From Desulfobacterales bacterium (lineage in GTDB: Bacteria; Desulfobacterota; Desulfobacteria; Desulfobacterales; JAAELO01), in assembly GCA_024226555.1 (NCBI GenBank), contig JAAELO010000822.1, forward strand, positions 62,866 through 126,865: a stretch of DNA of 64,000 bases. The letters run 5' to 3'. A program made the position numbers and the translations under genes. A model generated the notes under the pieces. It saw only the letters and a program-made list of their open reading frames with translations. It had not been told where the DNA came from and did no database searches. Shown here piece after piece: positions 4,641 through 63,403 of the stretch (the stretch's first letter is position 1; every line of letters begins with the position of its first letter).

Positions 4641-4801
4641 GGGAAACTCTAATAGTTAGTTTTTTGGTTGAATTACAAATTTTATAAAAGCTTCCGGTTT
4701 TATAAAACCCTCTGCTTGAGAAGTAAAGATAAGATTTTGCAACAGTTATTTTTTTCCTGTAACGCAGTAATTCTGACAAAAAGCATTTATTAGAGATTCC
4801 C
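4641..4801 (+). mobile_element. MITE copy, long variant
   Basis: TIRs GGGAAACTCTAATAGTTAG / CATTTATTAGAGATTCCC. The interior aligns to the reverse complement of the 56807 long copy, including the ttttataaaagcttccggttttataaaacc module. Confidence 0.75.
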
Positions 4802-4843
4802 TGTATTCTTATAAAATTAATAGTCCCTTAAGGACTGGTTTCT

Positions 4844-15626: not shown

Positions 15627-15640
15627 AATAACTAATTTAA

Positions 15641-15767
15641 GGGAACCTCTAACAATTAATATTTTGATAAAATACAAGGCATTTCTGAAAATAACGAGCC
15701 GATTTTATTACAGTTTTTTTTAGAAATAACACAATATTTTTCAAAAGAGGAGTTATTAGAGATTCCC
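15641..15767 (+). mobile_element. MITE copy, intact short type (127 bp)
   Basis: TIRs GGGAACCTCTAACAATTA / GAGTTATTAGAGATTCCC. Flanked by TTAA at 15637-15640 and 15768-15771. Starts 15 nt after the sdaA stop. Confidence 0.85.
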
Positions 15768-15922
15768 TTAATGTATTAGAAGCTATTTCAATAAAATACT
15801 CCCTCGATAAGCCATCTAAAAAATACTAAATCAAAGCTTTTTGTAAAATTTACCAAAATTTTATGATGGCACTTCGTGTCTATTAAAGCAAAAAAATCAT
15901 AACTAAATATCTTGTTAATTCA

Positions 15923-23285: not shown

Positions 23286-23415
23286 GGGAGTCTCTAATAA
23301 CTGTTCTTTTGGCGAAATACGGCTTTATTTCCAAAAAATAACTGTAATAAAATCGGCTCGTTATTTTTTGTCAAACCTTGTATTTCATCCAAAATTCTAA
23401 TTATTAGAGGTTCCT
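23286..23415 (-). mobile_element. MITE copy, intact short type, inside the hdrA-mvhD spacer
   Basis: The reverse complement aligns end-to-end with the 41456 copy. Flanked by TTTA at 23282-23285 and 23416-23419; the right-hand duplication contains the hdrA stop codon (TAA on the minus strand, 23419-23417). Confidence 0.85.
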
Positions 23416-28865: not shown

Positions 28866-28995
28866 TTCTGATTCGTTTATAAAACGCTTAATTTATAAAC
28901 ATTTACAACAGTTCTTTTTTTTGAATAAATCTGTTTTTCTGTCTTTTCGAACAACTTAAGTAGTCCCGGTCAAAAAGCAATTATTAGAAATTTCC
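28866..28995 (+). mobile_element. MITE copy, long type, 5'-truncated
   Basis: Aligns to the reverse complement of the 56807 copy from ...ctgattcgtttataaaa... to the right TIR CAATTATTAGAAATTTCC. The left TIR is absent. Confidence 0.6.
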
Positions 28996-30714: not shown

Positions 30715-30765
30715 ACTCCTATAAGGAAAAGATATGGCTAAAGGGAATAAATATTTATTATTTAT

Positions 30766-30895
30766 GGGAACCTCTAATAATTAGAATTTTTGATGAAAAA
30801 CAAGGCATAACAAAAAATAACGGGTTGATTTTACTACAGTTTTATTTTTGTTATAACGATGTGTTTCGCAAAAAGATCAGTTATTAGAGATTCCC
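30766..30895 (+). mobile_element. MITE copy, intact short type (130 bp)
   Basis: TIRs GGGAACCTCTAATAATTAG / CAGTTATTAGAGATTCCC. TTAT direct repeats at 30762-30765 and 30896-30899. Confidence 0.9.
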
Positions 30896-30997
30896 TTATG
30901 ATAAATTCATAAAAGGTTAAGAAAGCTTAATTTTATAAAGGGTTGTATTTTCACCATTTCTAATCTATCAGGATAATCGTTTTTTAAATTATTACCT

Positions 30998-35418: not shown

Positions 35419-35499
35419 GGGAAGTTCTAATAACTACATTTTTATAAAACTAAAAGCTTTTATAATCTGTATTTCAATCAAAATTATTAGAGGTTACCC
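35419..35499 (-). mobile_element. MITE copy, 81-bp deletion variant
   Basis: TIRs GGGAAGTTCTAATAACT / AATTATTAGAGGTTACCC enclose only one TTTTATAAA module and the ctgtatttcaatcaaaa block. Flanks are TATT/TATA. Confidence 0.75.
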
Positions 35500-41416: not shown

Positions 41417-41455
41417 ATAATATTTATTATTAAGATAAAACCTAAATACACTATA

Positions 41456-41584
41456 GGGAACCTCTAATAATTAAAATTTTGGATGAAATACAAGGTATTT
41501 CTAAAAATAATGAGCCGACTTTATTACAGTTTTTTTTAGAAATAACAAAGTATTTCGGCAAAAGAGGAGTTATTAGAGGTTCCC
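41456..41584 (+). mobile_element. MITE copy, intact short type (129 bp)
   Basis: TIRs GGGAACCTCTAATAATTA / GAGTTATTAGAGGTTCCC. TATA direct repeats at 41452-41455 and 41585-41588. Confidence 0.9.
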
Positions 41585-41792
41585 TATAACCATAAGTATC
41601 AATAATATTGAGATATCTTCCAAAAAATTTTCGAAAAAAAAATTAATAATTGTTAATTTTCTACATATTTTTCCTTTTTATCCGATTTAAAGAATGTTAT
41701 GAATTTTTAATCGTTAATTTAATAAATTATAAGATTTATACTAATGCAGATTGAGATTTTTTAATAATTATCTCCAAATTACAGGGGAAATA

Positions 41793-48484: not shown

Positions 48485-48643
48485 GGGGTAACTCTAATTA
48501 TTAGAATTTTGGATGAAAATACAAGGCTTGACCAAAAATAACGAACCGATTCGGTTATAAAACGTTTTTCTTTATAGCCATTACAGCAGTTTTTTTGGTA
48601 ATAAAGAAGTATTTAGCCAAAAGACAAGTTATTAGAGATTCAC
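48485..48643 (+). mobile_element. MITE copy with internal module insertion (159 bp)
   Basis: TIRs GGGGTAACTCTAATTATTAG / AAGTTATTAGAGATTCAC. TTAA direct repeats at 48481-48484 and 48644-48647. Extra ggttataaaacgtttttctttatagcc module. Confidence 0.8.
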
Positions 48644-48679
48644 TTAAATTATAATTTTTTTTATATAGAGGAATAAACT

Positions 48680-54940: not shown

Positions 54941-54958
54941 TATTACAAAATCTTATAT

Positions 54959-55317
54959 GGGAATCCTTAATAATTGCCTTTTGATAGAACGACTTAAGTT
55001 GTTTTAAAAGAAATAAAAACAAAACAACGGAGTATATTTCAAAAATAAAACTGTAAACTTTATAGAGGGAAACTCTAATAATTGGAGTTTTGTCTCAAAT
55101 ACAAGGCATGATAAAAAAATTGCCTACGCTTTAAAGGTGATTCCTTTTTCGAAAAACGCAGTATTTGATCAAAAGAGCAGTTATTTAGAGATTCCCTAGA
55201 ATAAAAACTTTTTATAAACGAAACGGCTCATTATTTTTCTTATGAAGAGATTTTATAAATCAAAAGGCTTTTATAAACGTTGTATTTAAATCATAATTCT
55301 AATTATTAGAGGTTTCC
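54959..55317 (-). mobile_element. MITE copy, long type, carrying a nested short-type insertion
   Basis: TIRs GGGAATCCTTAATAATT / CTAATTATTAGAGGTTTCC. It aligns with the 56807 copy on both sides of the 55067-55196 insert. Confidence 0.75.
55067..55196 (+). mobile_element. MITE copy, intact short type, nested inside the 54959-55317 element
   Basis: TIRs GGGAAACTCTAATAATTGG / CAGTTATTTAGAGATTCCC. TAGA direct repeats at 55063-55066 and 55197-55200. Confidence 0.9.
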
Positions 55318-55491
55318 AATCTAAAAAGTTGATAAAATCTTTAATTCATATTACTTTATTGTAATTATTCATGAATGCTTTGCCCTGATTTTTTAACGGT
55401 AGGTAAGATTCATAAAATTATTAATTGCCTAAAATTTAAAAATGTGGTTTTTATGGTCACTCTATAGAAAACTTTAAATAAAGAGGTTCAA

Positions 55492-56731: not shown

Positions 56732-56806
56732 TTGGTAACTCCTAATAGTGTCTGATTAACACATAGATAGTGTGGTCCAAACACAATGTCAAGGGGATTT
56801 TGTTAT

Positions 56807-56997
56807 GGGAATCTCTAATAACTGTCCTTTGACCGAACTACTGGCTTTCTTCGAAATAAAAAACTGTAAACTTTATAAAATAAACCTTTTTATAAACGAA
56901 TCAGCTCGTTATTTATTTCTCAAACAGAGGTTTTATAAAACTGAAAGCTTTTATAAACGCTGTATTTCAATCAAAATCCTAATTATTAGAGTTCCCC
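56807..56997 (-). mobile_element. MITE copy, intact long type (191 bp, two TTTTATAAA modules)
   Basis: TIRs GGGAATCTCTAATAACT / CTAATTATTAGAGTTCCCC. TTAT at 56803-56806 and 56998-57001. Ends 4 nt from the stop codon of 57002-58357. Confidence 0.85.
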
Positions 56998-57001
56998 TTA
57001 T

Positions 57002-58357
57002 TTAACTTTTAAAGGATTGCAGACCTTCACCAAGTTTTAAAGGGTCACCAGTTGGTATTAGTTCAACAAGCTCAGGTAATTGCTCTATTGAAAGACCTAT
57101 TTCATTAAACTTTTTTTCGATATCATCTGTGTGGATAGTTCCAATATTGATTCCAGCATTGAACCTGGTCATAATAAGGTCAGAGATATACAATATATTA
57201 ACAAGATCTTTACTATCTTTAAATGCATTTTCAGGATAGTGATGATATCTGATTGAGTCTGTTAATAGCTTGGAAAAGTTCCATTTTTCAGCCAGTTTCT
57301 CACCCACCTGAACATGAGTTATACCAAATAGTTCCTTCTCCATTGTTAGTATATTTTTATCTTTTTGAAGTTCTCTGTAAAAAAAAGGTTTAACATCTTT
57401 TGCATATTGATCCAGAACAACAATACCAATATCATGAATCAAACCAGCTGTATACCCAATTCCAGAGGGAACAGTTTTGGTTTTAATAGCAATCATCTCA
57501 GCTATAGCAGCAGACCCAATAGCATGATGGAAAAGACCTCCTTTGCATAATGAATAACCTGAGGAACTTTGAGAGAAATATTGTTTTACAGAGTTTGTTA
57601 TTACAACTTTAACCAACTGATTTAAACCAAGAACGATAATAGCATCATCAATAGATTCGATTTTTCTTCTTATTGAAAAATAACTGGAGTTACAGAGTTT
57701 AAGAATTTTGGCAGATATGACCTGATCTTGTCTAACTTCGGATGCAATTTTCTTTATGTCATAAACTTCATCATTTAAAAGTCTCAATATTTTTAACGCT
57801 ACCTGTGGAATTGGTTGTAGTTTATCCACAGCTTTTAAGATCTCTTTTTGTCCAGGAGTTTTAAATGAATGTTCTTTCTTATCGTCATAACTTAATGGTT
57901 TTATGGTGCATATAAAATTTTTAAGATTAAGCTCCAGGCAACATGAAAAAAACCCCCCTGTTTCGGAATATTCAATTTTAATACCCTTTTTTCTTAGAAT
58001 CGAGTTTGCAACTTCAGCGGTTCTTCCTCCAATATCCAAAACCATATCCTGTTCACTAACAGGACCTACTAAGGCTCCACCAGCAATATATGCCGTCATA
58101 TTTTCAATTTCAGCTCCAAGATTAATCATTTTATCTATGAAAATTGGTATACCTGTAGATGCATATTTTTCCGGATAATCTGTTGAAAGTTTTGAAACCG
58201 GCTCTGAGAGTAAGATGTGAATTAATCCACCGATTTTATTTTTTCTGTCAAATATAACAATACCAAGACATGTCCCTAAAAAGGCCTGTAAAATTGATGT
58301 TTTTTCTTGTTCAATTGCATAATTTCCAGATGTTACATGTATTGTCCTAATAGGCAT
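57002..58357 (-). CDS. CheD (chemoreceptor glutamine deamidase)-HDOD fusion protein
   Basis: N-terminal FLGTCLGIVIFD...IGGLIHILLSEP...EKYASTG...AYIAGGA...DIGGRT...SETGG follows the CheD pattern with its Cys/His. The C-terminal about 270 aa has HDOD features (...PQVALKILRLLNDE...LCNSSYF..., GLIHDIG). Confidence 0.8.
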   Translation of the reverse strand: MPIRTIHVTSGNYAIEQEKTSILQAFLGTCLGIVIFDRKNKIGGLIHILLSEPVSKLSTDYPEKYASTGIPIFIDKMINLGAEIENMTAYIAGGALVGPVSEQDMVLDIGGRTAEVANSILRKKGIKIEYSETGGFFSCCLELNLKNFICTIKPLSYDDKKEHSFKTPGQKEILKAVDKLQPIPQVALKILRLLNDEVYDIKKIASEVRQDQVISAKILKLCNSSYFSIRRKIESIDDAIIVLGLNQLVKVVITNSVKQYFSQSSSGYSLCKGGLFHHAIGSAAIAEMIAIKTKTVPSGIGYTAGLIHDIGIVVLDQYAKDVKPFFYRELQKDKNILTMEKELFGITHVQVGEKLAEKWNFSKLLTDSIRYHHYPENAFKDSKDLVNILYISDLIMTRFNAGINIGTIHTDDIEKKFNEIGLSIEQLPELVELIPTGDPLKLGEGLQSFKS

Positions 58358-58610
58358 AGTGGTCCCTTTGTAATAAATCTTAGATAAATCAGGTATTTTA
58401 TAACATTACAAGAAAAGATTTGAACTATAATACAGATCACATTTTGAAAGAAATTCCTGAAAAATGATTTCATTATACATGTAGATCTTATCAAAGAAAA
58501 CTCATTCTTTTTGATTTTTATACATAACCCTTTTCTTTCTTTATTAAGAAACTTCATAATGTTAATAAGATAGCTTAATATTATAATAATTCGAATAAGG
58601 CTTTTCAAAG

Positions 58611-61487
58611 ATGGATACAAATAAAGATATAGTTACCGATTATGTTGAAGCATTGAAAAAATTTGAAAGGCTTGAAAATGATATTGTAATTCATAAAGTA
58701 ATCAATGGACAGAAACCAAAATACGCTTCACCTGATAAACCATTTCATCCTGAGGTTGAAAAGATACTGAAACATGCAGGAATTGATAAACTATATCAGC
58801 ATCAGATAGATGCTATCAACAATATAAGAGATGGTAAAAACACGGTTATTGCAACTCCAACTGCAAGTGGTAAAACATTTATATATAACATACCCGTTTT
58901 TGAGAGTATATTTAAAGATAAAAAGACTAAAGCTCTCTATCTTTTTCCTTTAAAAGCACTTGCACAGGATCAGTTAAAAACAATTAAGGATTTAACAAGT
59001 ATTTTTGTAAAGGAGAAAAAACCCACTGCAGGAATTTATGATGGTGATACAAAACCCTATCAAAAATCAAAGATAAGGAAAAATCCACCAAACATAGTTC
59101 TTACAAATCCTGATATGTTACATCTTTCAATTCTTCCTTATCATAATACATGGAAAGAGTTTTTAAAAAAACTTAAGTATATTGTTGTTGATGAGATTCA
59201 CACATATAGAGGTGTTATGGGATCTCACATTTCATGGGTTTTCAAAAGATTGATAAGAATTTGTGAATATTACGGTGCAAAGCCAGTTTTTATCTTTTGT
59301 TCGGCAACAATCAAAAATCCGGGAGAGTTATCTCAAAACCTTACAGGAATTCCCTCAACAGTCATCAATAAAAGTACAGAAAAGAGAAGCAAAAAAAATT
59401 TTATTTTTATTAATGGAAACGGGATGACCTCTAAAGTTGCTATATTGTTACTACATGCAGCTCTTCACAGGAATATGAAAACGATTGTATATTCACAGTC
59501 AAGAAAAATGACTGAGCTGATATCTATTTGGGCAGCAAGTAAAACAAAAAAATTTAAAAAAAGAATCAGTTCATATAGAGCTGGCCTGCTTCCTGAGGAA
59601 AGACGAAAGGTTGAAGAAAAGCTTTCAAAAGGGGAATTACTTGCTGTTGTCACAACAAGTGCACTTGAATTAGGAATAGATATAGGAGCTCTGGATCTAT
59701 GTATTCTGGTTGGGTACCCTGGAACAGTAATGGCAACAATGCAAAGAGCAGGAAGAGTTGGACGGGCTGGCAAAGATTCAATAGTTATCTTAATAGGGCA
59801 CGAAGATGCTCTGGATCAATATTTTATGAATAACCCTGAGTCTTTTTTCAAAATGGATGCAGAATCTGCTGTGATAAACCCATATAATAGTGAAATAATG
59901 TCAAAACATCTTGAGTGTGCTGCATCGGAGATACCTCTAAACATAAATGAGAATTTTTTAAATGATGATTCTATAAAAAGATGTGTGAATAGACTGATCA
60001 ACAAAATTAAACTTGTTCAAAGTGAATCAGGTGTAACTTTTTTCCCTAATGGTCTGAAATTTCCACAAAGAAAGGTAAATCTTCGTGGAACAGGCTCAAC
60101 AATGCAAATTGTTAATGTTAACACTGGTAAGAGTATTGGTGATATTGATTATTTAAGATCATTTAAGGAAACCCATCCGGGCGCTGTATACCTTCACAGA
60201 GGTAAATCTTTTATTATAAGAGAGTTTAGTCCTGAGATAGCACTTATTTCAGCTGAACCTGCCAAATCAAATTATTATACTAAGGTTAGAAGTAATAAGG
60301 ATACTGAAATAATAAGCATAAAAAGACGTAAAAAAGTTGGAAATACTGAAGTTTTTCATGGGATGATAAATGTAACCGAAGAGATAACAGGATATGAACG
60401 TATATCCTTAAAGGGATATGGTAAAAAAACAATTATTCCGTTAGATATGCCGGAACTTACATTTGAAACTGAAGGGATGTGGTTTGTTATTCCGGACCAT
60501 ATTCATGAAACGTCTGAGAAATTAATGGAGCACTTTATGGGAGGAATACATGCATTTGAACATGCTGCCATAGGTATTCTTCCTCTGATGATAATGACAG
60601 ATAGAAATGATTTAGGTGGGATATCTATTCCATTTCACCCCCAGGTTGGTCATGCGGCAGTATTTATTTACGATGGTGTTCCAGGTGGTATTGGTCTTAC
60701 AGCAAGTGGTTTTGATAAAGCTTTTGAACTCCTTGAAAAGACACTTCAATCAATAAATACCTGTAAATGTGAGCATGGTTGTCCTGCATGTGTGCATTCA
60801 CCGAAATGTGGTTCCGGAAACAGACCAATTGATAAATATTCTGCTGTTAGTATTATTGAGAGGCTTTTGAATAAAGATGAGAAAAAATTCCTGAAAACAA
60901 ATATTGTAAAATTTGTTGAGAAGAAAAAGAAAGAAGATGAAATAGTTAAAAAACCTGATAGTTATGGAGTACTTGATCTCGAAACAAAAAGGTCAGCTGA
61001 GGAGGTTATGGGCTGGCACAGAGCATATCTAATGGGGATTAGTTGTTTGGTGCTTTACGATTCAAGGGATGACAAGTACCATGAGTATACGATGGACAAT
61101 ATTGATGAACTTACTGGTCATTTAGAGGAGTTGGATCTTATTATTGGTTTTAATATTATAAGATTTGACTACCTTGTACTTTCAGGGGTTCTGGACTATA
61201 ATTTCAATAAATTACCAACACTCGATCTTCTTGAAAAAGTTCATAAAAGATTGGGTTACAGATTGTCCCTTGATCATCTTGCAAACCTTAATCTTGGAGA
61301 GGAAAAAACTGCTGATGGACTCCAGGCTCTTAAATGGTGGAAAGAGGGGAAAATAAGAAAAATTATTGATTACTGCATAAAAGATGTTGAGATAACAAAA
61401 AAAATCTACCTCAAAGGAAGAGACGATGGCTTTCTATTCTTTAAGAACAAAGCAGATATGAAAGTTAGATTTCCTGTAAAGTGGTAA
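58611..61487 (+). CDS. MrfA/YprA-like DEXH helicase with DUF1998 zinc domain, fused to a C-terminal DEDD-type (YprB/MrfB-like) exonuclease domain
   Basis: Helicase motifs ATPTASGKT, VVDEIH, SAT and QRAGRVGR. DUF1998-type CKCEHGCPACVHSPKCGSGN. The last about 190 aa read VLDLET...IIGFNIIRFDYLVL...IIDYCIKDVE (Exo I/II/III-like). Confidence 0.85.
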   Translation: MDTNKDIVTDYVEALKKFERLENDIVIHKVINGQKPKYASPDKPFHPEVEKILKHAGIDKLYQHQIDAINNIRDGKNTVIATPTASGKTFIYNIPVFESIFKDKKTKALYLFPLKALAQDQLKTIKDLTSIFVKEKKPTAGIYDGDTKPYQKSKIRKNPPNIVLTNPDMLHLSILPYHNTWKEFLKKLKYIVVDEIHTYRGVMGSHISWVFKRLIRICEYYGAKPVFIFCSATIKNPGELSQNLTGIPSTVINKSTEKRSKKNFIFINGNGMTSKVAILLLHAALHRNMKTIVYSQSRKMTELISIWAASKTKKFKKRISSYRAGLLPEERRKVEEKLSKGELLAVVTTSALELGIDIGALDLCILVGYPGTVMATMQRAGRVGRAGKDSIVILIGHEDALDQYFMNNPESFFKMDAESAVINPYNSEIMSKHLECAASEIPLNINENFLNDDSIKRCVNRLINKIKLVQSESGVTFFPNGLKFPQRKVNLRGTGSTMQIVNVNTGKSIGDIDYLRSFKETHPGAVYLHRGKSFIIREFSPEIALISAEPAKSNYYTKVRSNKDTEIISIKRRKKVGNTEVFHGMINVTEEITGYERISLKGYGKKTIIPLDMPELTFETEGMWFVIPDHIHETSEKLMEHFMGGIHAFEHAAIGILPLMIMTDRNDLGGISIPFHPQVGHAAVFIYDGVPGGIGLTASGFDKAFELLEKTLQSINTCKCEHGCPACVHSPKCGSGNRPIDKYSAVSIIERLLNKDEKKFLKTNIVKFVEKKKKEDEIVKKPDSYGVLDLETKRSAEEVMGWHRAYLMGISCLVLYDSRDDKYHEYTMDNIDELTGHLEELDLIIGFNIIRFDYLVLSGVLDYNFNKLPTLDLLEKVHKRLGYRLSLDHLANLNLGEEKTADGLQALKWWKEGKIRKIIDYCIKDVEITKKIYLKGRDDGFLFFKNKADMKVRFPVKW

Positions 61488-61499
61488 AGGATATGAAAA

Positions 61500-62162
61500 A
61501 TGTGTGGAAGGTTTGCTTTTTACAGTACTATTGCTGCAATAAATAAAAGTATCAATATAAAAGTTATCACCTGCTCAGTTGAATCTTCATATAATATAGC
61601 ACCACTTAGTGAAGTTTTAACTGTGATCAGAGATGGTGATCTGAAACTCGGAAAACTGAAATGGGGTTTTGTTCCATCATTTGCAAAAGATACTAAATTA
61701 GCATCAAAAATGATCAATGCCAGATTTGAAACCATATCTGAAAAACCGAGCTTTAAAAGATCATACAGTAAAAAAAGATGCATTATTCTGGCAAATGGTT
61801 TTTATGAATGGCGCAAGGAGAAAGATGGAAAACAACCATACTACATCTATATCCCAACAAGAGAAATTTTAACATTTGCAGGAATATTTGAGATCTGGAA
61901 TAAAAAATACAAATCCTGTGCAATTATCACCAAAGATTCATCATCAGATATATCTAAAATACACCCGCGAATGCCAGTTGTTTTAAAAGAGAATGCTTTT
62001 ATGGACTGGCTTGATAAAGATATTACTGATAAAGATGCTTTAAATGAAATTATTCAGGAAAACTGTGAGGATAGTTTCAGCTTCCACAAGGTTTCAAAAG
62101 ATGTAAACTATACTCAGAAAAATTCAAAAAAATGTATATCTGTTTTAACCGAATCTCTCTGA
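61500..62162 (+). CDS. SOS-response-associated peptidase (SRAP; YedK/HMCES family)
   Basis: Starts MCGRF (catalytic Cys2), with YNIAP, MINARFET and FYEW motifs. Begins 12 nt after the helicase stop. Confidence 0.9.
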   Translation: MCGRFAFYSTIAAINKSINIKVITCSVESSYNIAPLSEVLTVIRDGDLKLGKLKWGFVPSFAKDTKLASKMINARFETISEKPSFKRSYSKKRCIILANGFYEWRKEKDGKQPYYIYIPTREILTFAGIFEIWNKKYKSCAIITKDSSSDISKIHPRMPVVLKENAFMDWLDKDITDKDALNEIIQENCEDSFSFHKVSKDVNYTQKNSKKCISVLTESL

Positions 62163-62282
62163 AAAAATGTAATAGGAGAATGTAATTTATCAGGTTGTCC
62201 CCCCTGAAAAATTGTTACTTTGGAGAGTTCATGGGTATAAAAAGATAGAGAAAGACTTTTCCTCTTCAATGTCCCGATTTTT

Positions 62283-62333
62283 TTATTGTGAAGCTTGCGT
62301 TTAATACCCGCTTGCGGCGGGGTTTTTTATTTG
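62283..62333 (+). repeat. Repeat A: about 50-bp element ending in a GC-rich hairpin plus T-tract
   Basis: TTATTgtgAAGCTTGcgtttaataCCCgCTTGCGGCGgggTTTTTTATTTg; an inverted partner lies at 63652-63702. Confidence 0.5.
62307..62329 (+). terminator. Rho-independent terminator of the helicase-SRAP unit
   Basis: CCCGC-ttgcg-GCGGG followed by GTTTTTTAT. It is a GC-rich island in AT-rich DNA, 145 nt after the SRAP stop. Confidence 0.6.
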
Positions 62334-62359: not shown

Positions 62360-63212
62360 CTATTTTTTTATCAATTTATCAGGTAGAGCGTAATATTTAT
62401 CATGAATTTTCTGCATTATCTTTGATTCTCGGATTTTAGCCATCTTATCCCAGATTTTATTTGCAAGATCAGGATGTTTCTTTATAAATTGATGTGAAAA
62501 CATTAAATAGTAGGGTTTCATAACAAATGGTGGTTCTAATTTTACTATGTTTTTATATTTATGGTTATTTTTAATAGTAAAATCAATTTTTTTAGGATGA
62601 TCTGTAATAACGTAAAATCGTCTTGCCAATAGTTTATTCAAATTATTAATTGAGGTTGTCGCACCATCATCAACAAGAAATCCACGTTTTTTGAGTTCAC
62701 CTACTGACGAATACCCTAAAATAGCGCCAATACGTCCTTTTAGGTTTGTGAATTTTTTACCATCCCATTGAACTGAAGAACCTAACATTTTGTAAAAGGC
62801 ATAGGAGTTAATTGTAATTCTTCGCTTTGGATCTGCCTTTCCGTTTTTCATAGGATAAACGCCATATTTCAATCGTCCTTTTTTGAAACTGGAGGTAAAA
62901 GCTCCTTGTCTTTCATTTTTTAAGTTGGTCAAGACACCTTCTCCAGTTAGTTCGATAATAATTTAATTTAATTTGTGGTATTTCTTCGTCGACTAATTGC
63001 AGTAACTCTATAGTAACTCCGGGCTTTTCCCAGTTAAATTTAGTTCCATTCCCAATTAATAAAGGGAAATTGTGAGAATTTCCAGTAGTCAATTTTAAAA
63101 CAATAGGGCTTTCAGCTAGAAGTTGATTTTTATTTCCTAATAAAAAAATCATTATAATGATAAATAAATGAAATAAATTTTGTCTTACCGCATTTTTAAA
63201 AAATATTTTCAT
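62360..63212 (-). pseudogene. Family-3 periplasmic solute-binding protein, frameshifted
   Basis: ORFs 62913-63212 (signal peptide ...RTNWRRCLDQLKK*) and 62360-62932 (...NLKNERQGAFTSSFKKGR...) are one gene. The minus-strand A6 run (plus-strand T-run 62916-62921) has one base too many; A5 would give ...CLDQLKNERQGAF.... Confidence 0.75.
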
Positions 63213-63245
63213 GTTTTCTATCCTTTAATTGTTTTTATACTATAG

Positions 63246-63373
63246 GGGAATCTCTAATAACTGATCTTTTGGCGAAATACTTTGTTATTTCCAAAAATAA
63301 CTGTAATAAAATCGGTCGTTAATTTTTGAAAAACCTTGTATTTCATTCAAAATTCTAATTATTAGAGGTTCCC
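63246..63373 (-). mobile_element. MITE copy, intact short type (128 bp), in the 5' leader of the broken SBP gene
   Basis: TIRs GGGAATCTCTAATAACTG / CTAATTATTAGAGGTTCCC. ATAG direct repeats at 63242-63245 and 63374-63377. Confidence 0.9.
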
Positions 63374-63403
63374 ATAGGTAATAAATGGATTGAGTTATAC
63401 GAT

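Follow-up and report, generated by a model that had tools for sequence, protein, structure and literature searches.

A Desulfobacterales MrfA-type helicase fused to a predicted DEDDy exonuclease, and its lineage-specific SRAP neighbour

In Bacillus subtilis, the helicase MrfA (YprA) and its partner MrfB (YprB), a metal-dependent DEDD 3'-5' exonuclease of family PF13482, are two interacting proteins that serve the excision repair of mitomycin C damage (10.1101/426304; PMC11194089). MrfA-MrfB fusions have been reported by Burby & Simmons (Fig 6A legend), by Majorek 2014 as a cluster of helicase-linked PF13482 domains, and in a preprint on the YprA family (10.1101/2025.09.15.676423). Here, we describe a fusion of this kind encoded on contig JAAELO010000822.1 of a Desulfobacterales metagenome-assembled genome (MAG). 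The analysed stretch of 64 kb, hereafter called the window, contains the fusion gene and, directly downstream, a gene for an SRAP protein of the YedK/HMCES family.

A sequence-only reading of the window had proposed that helicase, exonuclease and SRAP protein constitute a dedicated three-activity module. Our comparisons favour another explanation, to which we assign a probability of about 0.7: the fusion is a single-polypeptide MrfA-type excision enzyme of chromosomal, housekeeping DNA repair without a conserved partner, and the SRAP protein acts independently. The helicase-exonuclease fusion is not new, but is one more member of a described group, now from a Desulfobacterales MAG. It has the same architecture as the reported fusions and cluster F.14 of Majorek 2014, namely a PF13482 domain C-terminal to a YprA-type helicase, and shows no architectural difference from them.

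Domain architecture of the fusion protein

The fusion gene and its predicted domains are located as follows.

58611-61487, + strand: MrfA-type helicase/DEDDy exonuclease fusion gene, 958 aa (open reading frame, Pfam set, phmmer, Foldseek)
58797-59771, + strand: superfamily 2 (SF2) DExH helicase core, RecA1 aa 63-236 and RecA2 aa 284-387 (Pfam DEAD 4.3e-32, Helicase_C 1.5e-17)
59874-60092, + strand: winged-helix domain, aa 422-494 (Pfam WHD_HRQ1 1.1e-08)
60555-60794, + strand: MZB/DUF1998 MrfA Zn-binding module, aa 649-728, with C718/C720/C724/C727 (Pfam MZB, PF09369, 1.5e-21)
60882-60944, + strand: Lys/Glu-rich flexible linker, aa 758-778 (pLDDT <50 in the full-length AlphaFold2 (AF2) model)
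60963-61484, + strand: predicted DEDDy 3'-5' exonuclease domain, aa 785-958, ~175 aa (PF13482, AF2 model, Foldseek, invariant residues)

The open reading frames (ORFs), the 12-nt spacing between the fusion and SRAP genes and the motifs quoted in the sequence-only reading were all found in place. In the helicase part, these motifs are TPTASGKT (motif I; 82-89), DEIH (motif II; 194-197), QRAGRVGR (motif VI; 378-385) and the cysteine motif CKCEHGCPAC (718-727). In 23 homologs (alignment A1), motifs I, II (DEIH), III (SAT) and VI were invariant, as were the four Zn cysteines. In a phmmer search of PDB sequences, aa 23-730 aligned collinearly with residues 20-732 of the B. subtilis MrfA/YprA crystal structure 6ZNP (E=1e-138), that is, over ~710 residues including the DExH core, the winged helix, the OB-CON region and the four-Cys MZB module. 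The same structure was by far the best PDB match of the full-length AlphaFold model (pLDDT 79.9) in Foldseek (E=3.7e-67, 33% identity). Judging from the Pfam set, the two matches to 6ZNP and the invariant motifs and Zn cysteines, the helicase part is a bona fide member of the MrfA/YprA (DUF1998) family, and the YprA/MrfA architecture proposed earlier, with a DEXH core and a four-Cys module, is thus borne out. The NCBIfam model TIGR03817 matched aa 43-754 at 694 bits, under its equivalog cutoff of 874.

The C-terminal domain contains the motifs VLDLET (787-792), GFNIIRFD (846-853) and DYCIKDVE (920-927), with the catalytic sites Exo I (D789/E791), Exo II (N848..D853) and Exo III (Y921-x3-D925). 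RNase_H_2 (PF13482) matched aa 834-933 with 26 bits in the full protein and reached 30.3 bits when the domain was scanned by itself; both scores exceed the cutoff of 22. Residues D789, E791, D853, Y921 and D925 were invariant among the fusions and 15 stand-alone relatives (175-200 aa, 34-43% identity; alignments A1, A2 and A5), so that the four acidic ligands used as a criterion by Burby & Simmons are conserved as in MrfB. When aa 775-958 were modelled alone with 15 homologs, AF2 returned a pLDDT of 91 and a pTM of 0.87. In Foldseek, the PDB structures that came closest to this model were 3'-5' proofreading domains, namely those of B-family polymerases, of T7 DNA polymerase and of E. coli Pol II (E 3e-6 to 1e-4). 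According to Manthei et al., MrfB has the same fold neighbours (PMC11194089). Because the catalytic residues are invariant and a confident model matches proofreading exonuclease folds, we predict that the C-terminal domain functions as an exonuclease of the DEDDy type. The exonuclease fold and acidic catalytic residues anticipated from the sequence were thus recovered.

The linker between the two parts differs in length between homologs (alignment A1). Since it is predicted to be disordered and the full-length model has a pTM of only 0.52, the exonuclease appears to be tethered to the helicase without confident docking. For the same reasons, the full-length AF2 model was discarded as uninformative about how the exonuclease might dock.

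The fused exonuclease differs from MrfB in several respects. It has Tyr921 (DEDDy) four residues before D925, whereas MrfB has His258 (DEDDh; PMC11194089). Furthermore, the fusion lacks the N-terminal extension and the C-terminal TPR region of MrfB (PMC11194089); the protein ends at W958, with no TPR match. The TPR region is also missing from the Pseudomonas aeruginosa MrfB homolog, and is therefore not universal in the family (10.1101/426304). MrfB (8UN9) was not retrieved at E<=10 when all PDB sequences were searched once with the single sequence and twice with a profile, and the best PDB sequence match of the exonuclease profile was the exonuclease domain of T7 polymerase (E=0.0067). These results fit the clustering of PF13482 by Majorek 2014, who separated a COG3359 cluster 'frequently followed by TPR' (YprB type) from cluster F.14, which unites DEAD/DEAH helicases and T7 polymerase.

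A profile search of 1.84 billion representatives yielded 3,574 clusters with the exonuclease domain, 454 of them at E<=1e-30. They include the C-termini of ~920-1180-aa helicases, stand-alone proteins and fusions to Siphovirus Gp157. The occurrence of the same domain family in Gp157 fusions and stand-alone proteins suggests that the helicase-fused exonuclease belongs to a phage/T7-like lineage, not to the Bacillus MrfB lineage. Hence, the earlier description as an MrfA-MrfB fusion holds insofar as a helicase and a DEDDy exonuclease are fused, but orthology to MrfB is not demonstrable, given the DEDDy signature, the missing TPR region and the lack of a match to 8UN9. The label 'MrfAB fusion' may overstate orthology, because the fused exonuclease is of the DEDDy, T7/phage-like branch of PF13482 and not of the DEDDh, TPR-bearing MrfB type. 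These fused DEDDy enzymes deserve their own biochemical characterisation.

As a side observation on this family, the proteins P0353 and P0362 (E~1e-50 to the profile) represent DEDDy exonucleases that are N-terminally fused to a Siphovirus Gp157 domain or stand alone at 175-200 aa.

Distribution of the fusion and its linkage to SRAP

A protein search gave at least 120 full-length homologs among the matches listed; they are 940-1029 aa long and 49-77% identical, and almost all of them share the Pfam set of the fusion. In GTDB, scanned with one genome per species, at least 595 stretches encode relatives of the fusion. The best 80 of these stretches were taken for the locus analyses; all encode full-length fusions, and they come from Desulfobacterales and Desulfovibrionales. 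Cultured carriers are Desulfobacter, Halodesulfovibrio, Salidesulfovibrio and Desulfovibrio caledoniensis. The fusion is common and vertically inherited in sulfate-reducing Desulfobacterota; as it is also already in the literature, its discovery value is small.

Clustering of the neighbouring genes revealed no conserved partner of any kind beside the fusion. Its flanks are varied and of a housekeeping nature, with a sigma-54 regulator, CNNM, EF-P, arginase, cytochrome c and CheX-like genes among others. We also considered a variable slot for repair partners 3' of the fusion. This idea was rejected after inspection of 37 candidate same-strand downstream ORFs, among which DNA-repair genes numbered zero; these candidates were cytochromes c, CheX-like proteins, transporters, a sirtuin, DapF, an antitoxin and spurious ORFs.

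In the window, the fusion gene is followed by these features.

61488-61499, + strand: intergenic gap of 12 nt with an AAGGA ribosome-binding motif (direct reading of the sequence)
61500-62162, + strand: SRAP (YedK/HMCES family) gene, 220 aa, start MCGRF (ORF, Pfam)
62307-62329, + strand: intrinsic-terminator-like hairpin and T-run, 145 nt past the SRAP stop codon (consensus scan and sequence; putative function)

The SRAP protein foreseen downstream of the fusion is intact: Pfam SRAP (PF02586) matched aa 1-203 over its full length (2.8e-65). Its catalytic Cys2, Asn73, Glu103 (in GFYEW) and His155 (in IHPRMP) are intact and invariant in alignment A3, and we take them to be the equivalents of the catalytic Cys2, Asn75, Glu105 and His160 of YedK (YedK numbering). 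The protein thus resembles E. coli YedK and human HMCES in being a full-length SRAP with intact catalytic residues, although the genomic context differs. It has few close relatives, at 100%, 57% and 63% identity (the last a partial match), followed by homologs at <=47% from many phyla.

After the TAA stop codon of the fusion, the gap reads AGGATATGAAAA and supplies the AAGGA Shine-Dalgarno-like motif. A G+C-rich hairpin, CCCGCTTGCGGCGGG, spans 62307-62321 and is followed by the T-run, whereas the same consensus scan found no terminator-like site between the two genes. The terminator noted earlier is present as hairpin and T-run, but on its own it is a mere consensus match, since three such sites occur in the region versus 1.8 expected. 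Given that only 12 nt separate them and that one terminator lies downstream of both, the fusion and SRAP genes in the window's lineage probably share one transcript, in agreement with the sequence-only reading. An identical protein pair is encoded in Desulfobacterales MAGs at NCBI by the consecutive entries MCP3926928/29 and MCP4161078/79, labelled 'DEAD/DEAH box helicase' and 'SOS response-associated peptidase', and nothing more.

The adjacency of the two genes does not recur. Six-frame ORFs within up to ±6 kb of the fusion contained no SRAP at E<=10 in any of the 80 GTDB loci (0/80), 68 of which extend >=1 kb downstream; the scan did pick up the SRAP gene of the window, which served as positive control. 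None of the contigs of the five closest fusion homologs carries an SRAP gene (0/5). In the two closest of these (77% and 76% identity), a GYF_2-domain gene lies downstream in place of SRAP, and nucleotide similarity to the window begins ~75 nt before the ATG and ends exactly at the fusion stop codon. The other three of the five, P0004, P0005 and P0006 (57-59% identity), have no SRAP beside the fusion either. From the side of SRAP, 80 metagenomic loci with homologs at 32-47% identity (50 of them with >=1 kb upstream) contained neither a YprA-type helicase nor this exonuclease within 5 kb (0/80).

Published SRAP neighbourhoods contain UmuCD, ImuA-ImuB-DnaE2, DinB, Ku/ligase and an SF1 RecD-like helicase (PMC3765255), and a YprA-type helicase is not among the neighbours in that survey. 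The YprA-family preprint does not describe the fusion-SRAP pair, and its supplements do not contain the terms SRAP, YedK or PF02586.

Apart from the window's own species, where contig L086 and a 6.9-kb contig carry it, the pair was found in just one further lineage, represented by two assemblies, L084 (GCA_024449935.1) and L171 (GCA_024449685.1). In this second lineage, the C-terminus of the fusion is followed by 123 nt and then SRAP; identity to the window is 61% in the exonuclease region and 57% in SRAP. In L084 (2-799), an in-frame stop interrupts the fusion frame immediately ahead of the Zn module, and GWLAC replaces GCPAC, by which the third Zn-ligand Cys is lost. A further contig, L167, from a sample related to the one that holds the 76%-identity fusion homolog, encodes the 63%-identical SRAP (148-820), which is split by a frameshift and has 147 nt of non-coding sequence but no fusion end upstream. 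The L084 fusion and the L167 SRAP could be pseudogenes or products of low-quality assembly. As the pair is confined to 2 of the ~75 lineages examined and is missing from the nearest relatives, the SRAP adjacency is a lineage-specific arrangement, not an obligate or recurrent three-activity module.

Possible functions of the fusion and the SRAP protein

In the single-polypeptide excision enzyme that we favour, the DExH motor would translocate 3'-5' on single-stranded DNA (ssDNA) under a canopy formed by OB-CON and MZB, by analogy with the structures of MrfA (PMC7797055) and with M. smegmatis SftH. The helicase part would displace the damaged strand, and the flexibly tethered DEDDy nuclease would digest this strand from its 3' end, as the work on MrfB (PMC11194089) and the intact two-metal site lead us to infer. 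The outcome would be a UvrABC-independent excision route. The SRAP protein would independently shield apurinic/apyrimidinic (AP) sites on ssDNA, with Cys2 forming a thiazolidine crosslink. Helicase and DEDD exonuclease are also combined in one chain in WRN and in Staphylococcus aureus DinG (PMC12345164). Both are no more than analogies: their exonuclease lies at the N-terminus, in contrast to the fusion, and the helicase families differ.

Several points weigh against this explanation. The mitomycin C specificity of MrfAB is not transferable between distant species, as cross-species complementation failed (10.1101/426304). The exonuclease is nearer to T7/phage-type DEDDy domains than to MrfB, so that the analogy with MrfB is confined to fold and architecture. 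Moreover, the gene order fusion-SRAP has been kept in the second lineage even though the gene 3' of the pair differs from that in the window, which hints at selective retention of the pair, and the 12-nt spacing with its ribosome-binding motif suggests real co-expression.

The last two points also count in favour of the proposed dedicated module, in which helicase, exonuclease and SRAP would jointly process adducts, crosslinks or AP sites; for instance, SRAP might shield AP sites on ssDNA exposed by the helicase, or the helicase-exonuclease might remove SRAP-DNA crosslinks. Such a module would have the single downstream terminator to its credit as well, and an order of genes that persists at ~57-61% protein identity. 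Analogous pairings exist in operons that combine SRAP with SF1 RecD-like helicases (PMC3765255) and in mycobacteria, where the 3'-5' SF2 helicase Lhr and the ssDNA AP-lyase Nei2 form one damage-induced operon (PMC11323726). The likeness to Lhr-Nei2 is analogy only: the helicase is of a different family, and the AP chemistry is that of a lyase in Nei2 versus a covalent shield in SRAP. The surveys of fusion and SRAP loci, the loss of similarity at the fusion stop codon in the 76-77% relatives, the 63%-identical SRAP without a fusion end in a sibling sample, the disrupted L084 fusion and the missing SOS box all argue against the module, which we consider unlikely.

A narrower version, restricted to one Desulfobacterales lineage, is improbable too. 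Here, fusion and SRAP would be a true operon with coupled function: either the helicase-exonuclease would excise or unfold SRAP-DNA crosslinks, or SRAP would cap AP sites on ssDNA produced by the helicase. If true, this would give bacteria an equivalent of the helicase-assisted resolution of HMCES crosslinks. The adjacency in two lineages offers a cheap, testable lead on the resolution of bacterial SRAP-DNA crosslinks, although comparison across genomes lends no support to a general system.

Alternatively, the adjacency might be meaningless: SRAP would have been inserted by chance behind a gene that is expressed well, and its product would never meet the fusion protein. The rarity of the pair, its loss in the nearest relatives and the scatter of SRAP homologs over many phyla at <=47% identity outside the two lineages are what chance insertion would leave behind. 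It differs from the independent-repair explanation just by denying co-expression, however, and the 12-nt gap with its ribosome-binding motif makes such denial unlikely; the persistence of the order in a second lineage and the fully ameliorated composition of the SRAP gene also speak against it, and we regard it as improbable.

Finally, the fusion might be the core of a YprA-family anti-phage defence system, comparable to DISARM, Dpd, Druantia or ARMADA, in which the exonuclease would act as effector. YprA helicases are central in several defence systems (10.1101/2025.09.15.676423), the PADLOC models BrxHI, SngC and DruE match the helicase core, and the same exonuclease family occurs in the phage-type Gp157 fusions. 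We nevertheless consider this role very improbable. The PADLOC matches do not reach beyond the generic RecA core (aa ~45-400), and the genes nearby include no methyltransferase, PLD, Vsr or other partner known from defence systems. The context is housekeeping, with a single gene conserved across two orders. [quoted passage not shown] Defence YprA proteins typically have additional Zn-binding insertions, of which the collinear alignment to MrfA gives no sign.

Upstream region and genomic setting

The sequence-only reading had suggested a search for an SOS/LexA-type box upstream of the fusion (58358-58610). None of 13 known LexA consensus patterns, which may not represent the Desulfobacterales motif, occurred in 58358-58625. 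An inverted-repeat search in the upstream region found just two weak AT-rich pairs, and palindromes upstream of 67 fusion genes were not enriched above shuffled controls. Regulation by SOS/LexA is therefore not supported by these searches. One upstream element did stand out.

58535-58561, + strand: conserved block TTCTTTATTAAGAA-N5-CATAATG with the palindrome TTCTT-N4-AAGAA, ~50-75 nt before the start codon

Upstream of the fusion, this block is all that is conserved in L081 and L082, relatives with 73% identity, and it matches no known LexA box. As a candidate regulatory element, it could serve the fusion gene as promoter or operator.

The surroundings of the locus are those of an ordinary Desulfobacterales chromosome, with hybrid sensor kinases, beta-oxidation genes, Hdr-like redox proteins, NrtR and a CheD-HDOD protein. 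The window contains no lexA, defence genes or mobile genes, and Rfam and tRNA scans gave no match in the fusion-SRAP locus. The GC content of the SRAP gene is 0.318 versus 0.322 for the window, so its composition fits the genome. A signature of horizontal transfer of SRAP was rejected, as its GC content and GC3 (GC content at third codon positions) show no difference from those of its neighbours.

The divergent upstream neighbour (57002-58357, - strand) encodes the CheD-HDOD protein, which has 451 aa with a CheD chemoreceptor-deamidase domain (aa 58-153) and an HDOD/HD domain (aa 181-388). This architecture is unusual for signalling, and the gene is not kept beside the fusion in other genomes. 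Convergent with SRAP, two overlapping ORFs of 190 and 99 aa (62360-63212, - strand) have no Pfam or PADLOC match. In the matching region of the near-identical contig L086, the gene caller gives one 216-aa product. The alignment of the window with L086 has 9 gap openings over 6.8 kb, so a frameshift difference at 62360-63212 is possible.

A dispersed intergenic repeat of ~130-170 nt is present in at least 12 copies in the window, with 70-91% identity between copies and an end that often reads ..TTATTAGAGATTCCCT. The copies lie at 1074-1152, 4649-4802, 15638-15776, 23286-23414, 28868-28929, 30753-30899, 35440-35484, 41451-41588, 48486-48654, 55067-55318, 56804-57019 and 63210-63377. At 54958-55319, the window has ~360 extra nt of this repeat in comparison with L086, a ~99%-identical MAG contig, and the repeat is therefore polymorphic. 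It looks like a miniature inverted-repeat transposable element (MITE) or a repetitive extragenic palindromic (REP) element. Far from the fusion-SRAP locus, a cobalamin riboswitch (RF00174; 540-731, - strand) matched its model over the full length with 103.6 bits, versus a gathering score of 31.5.

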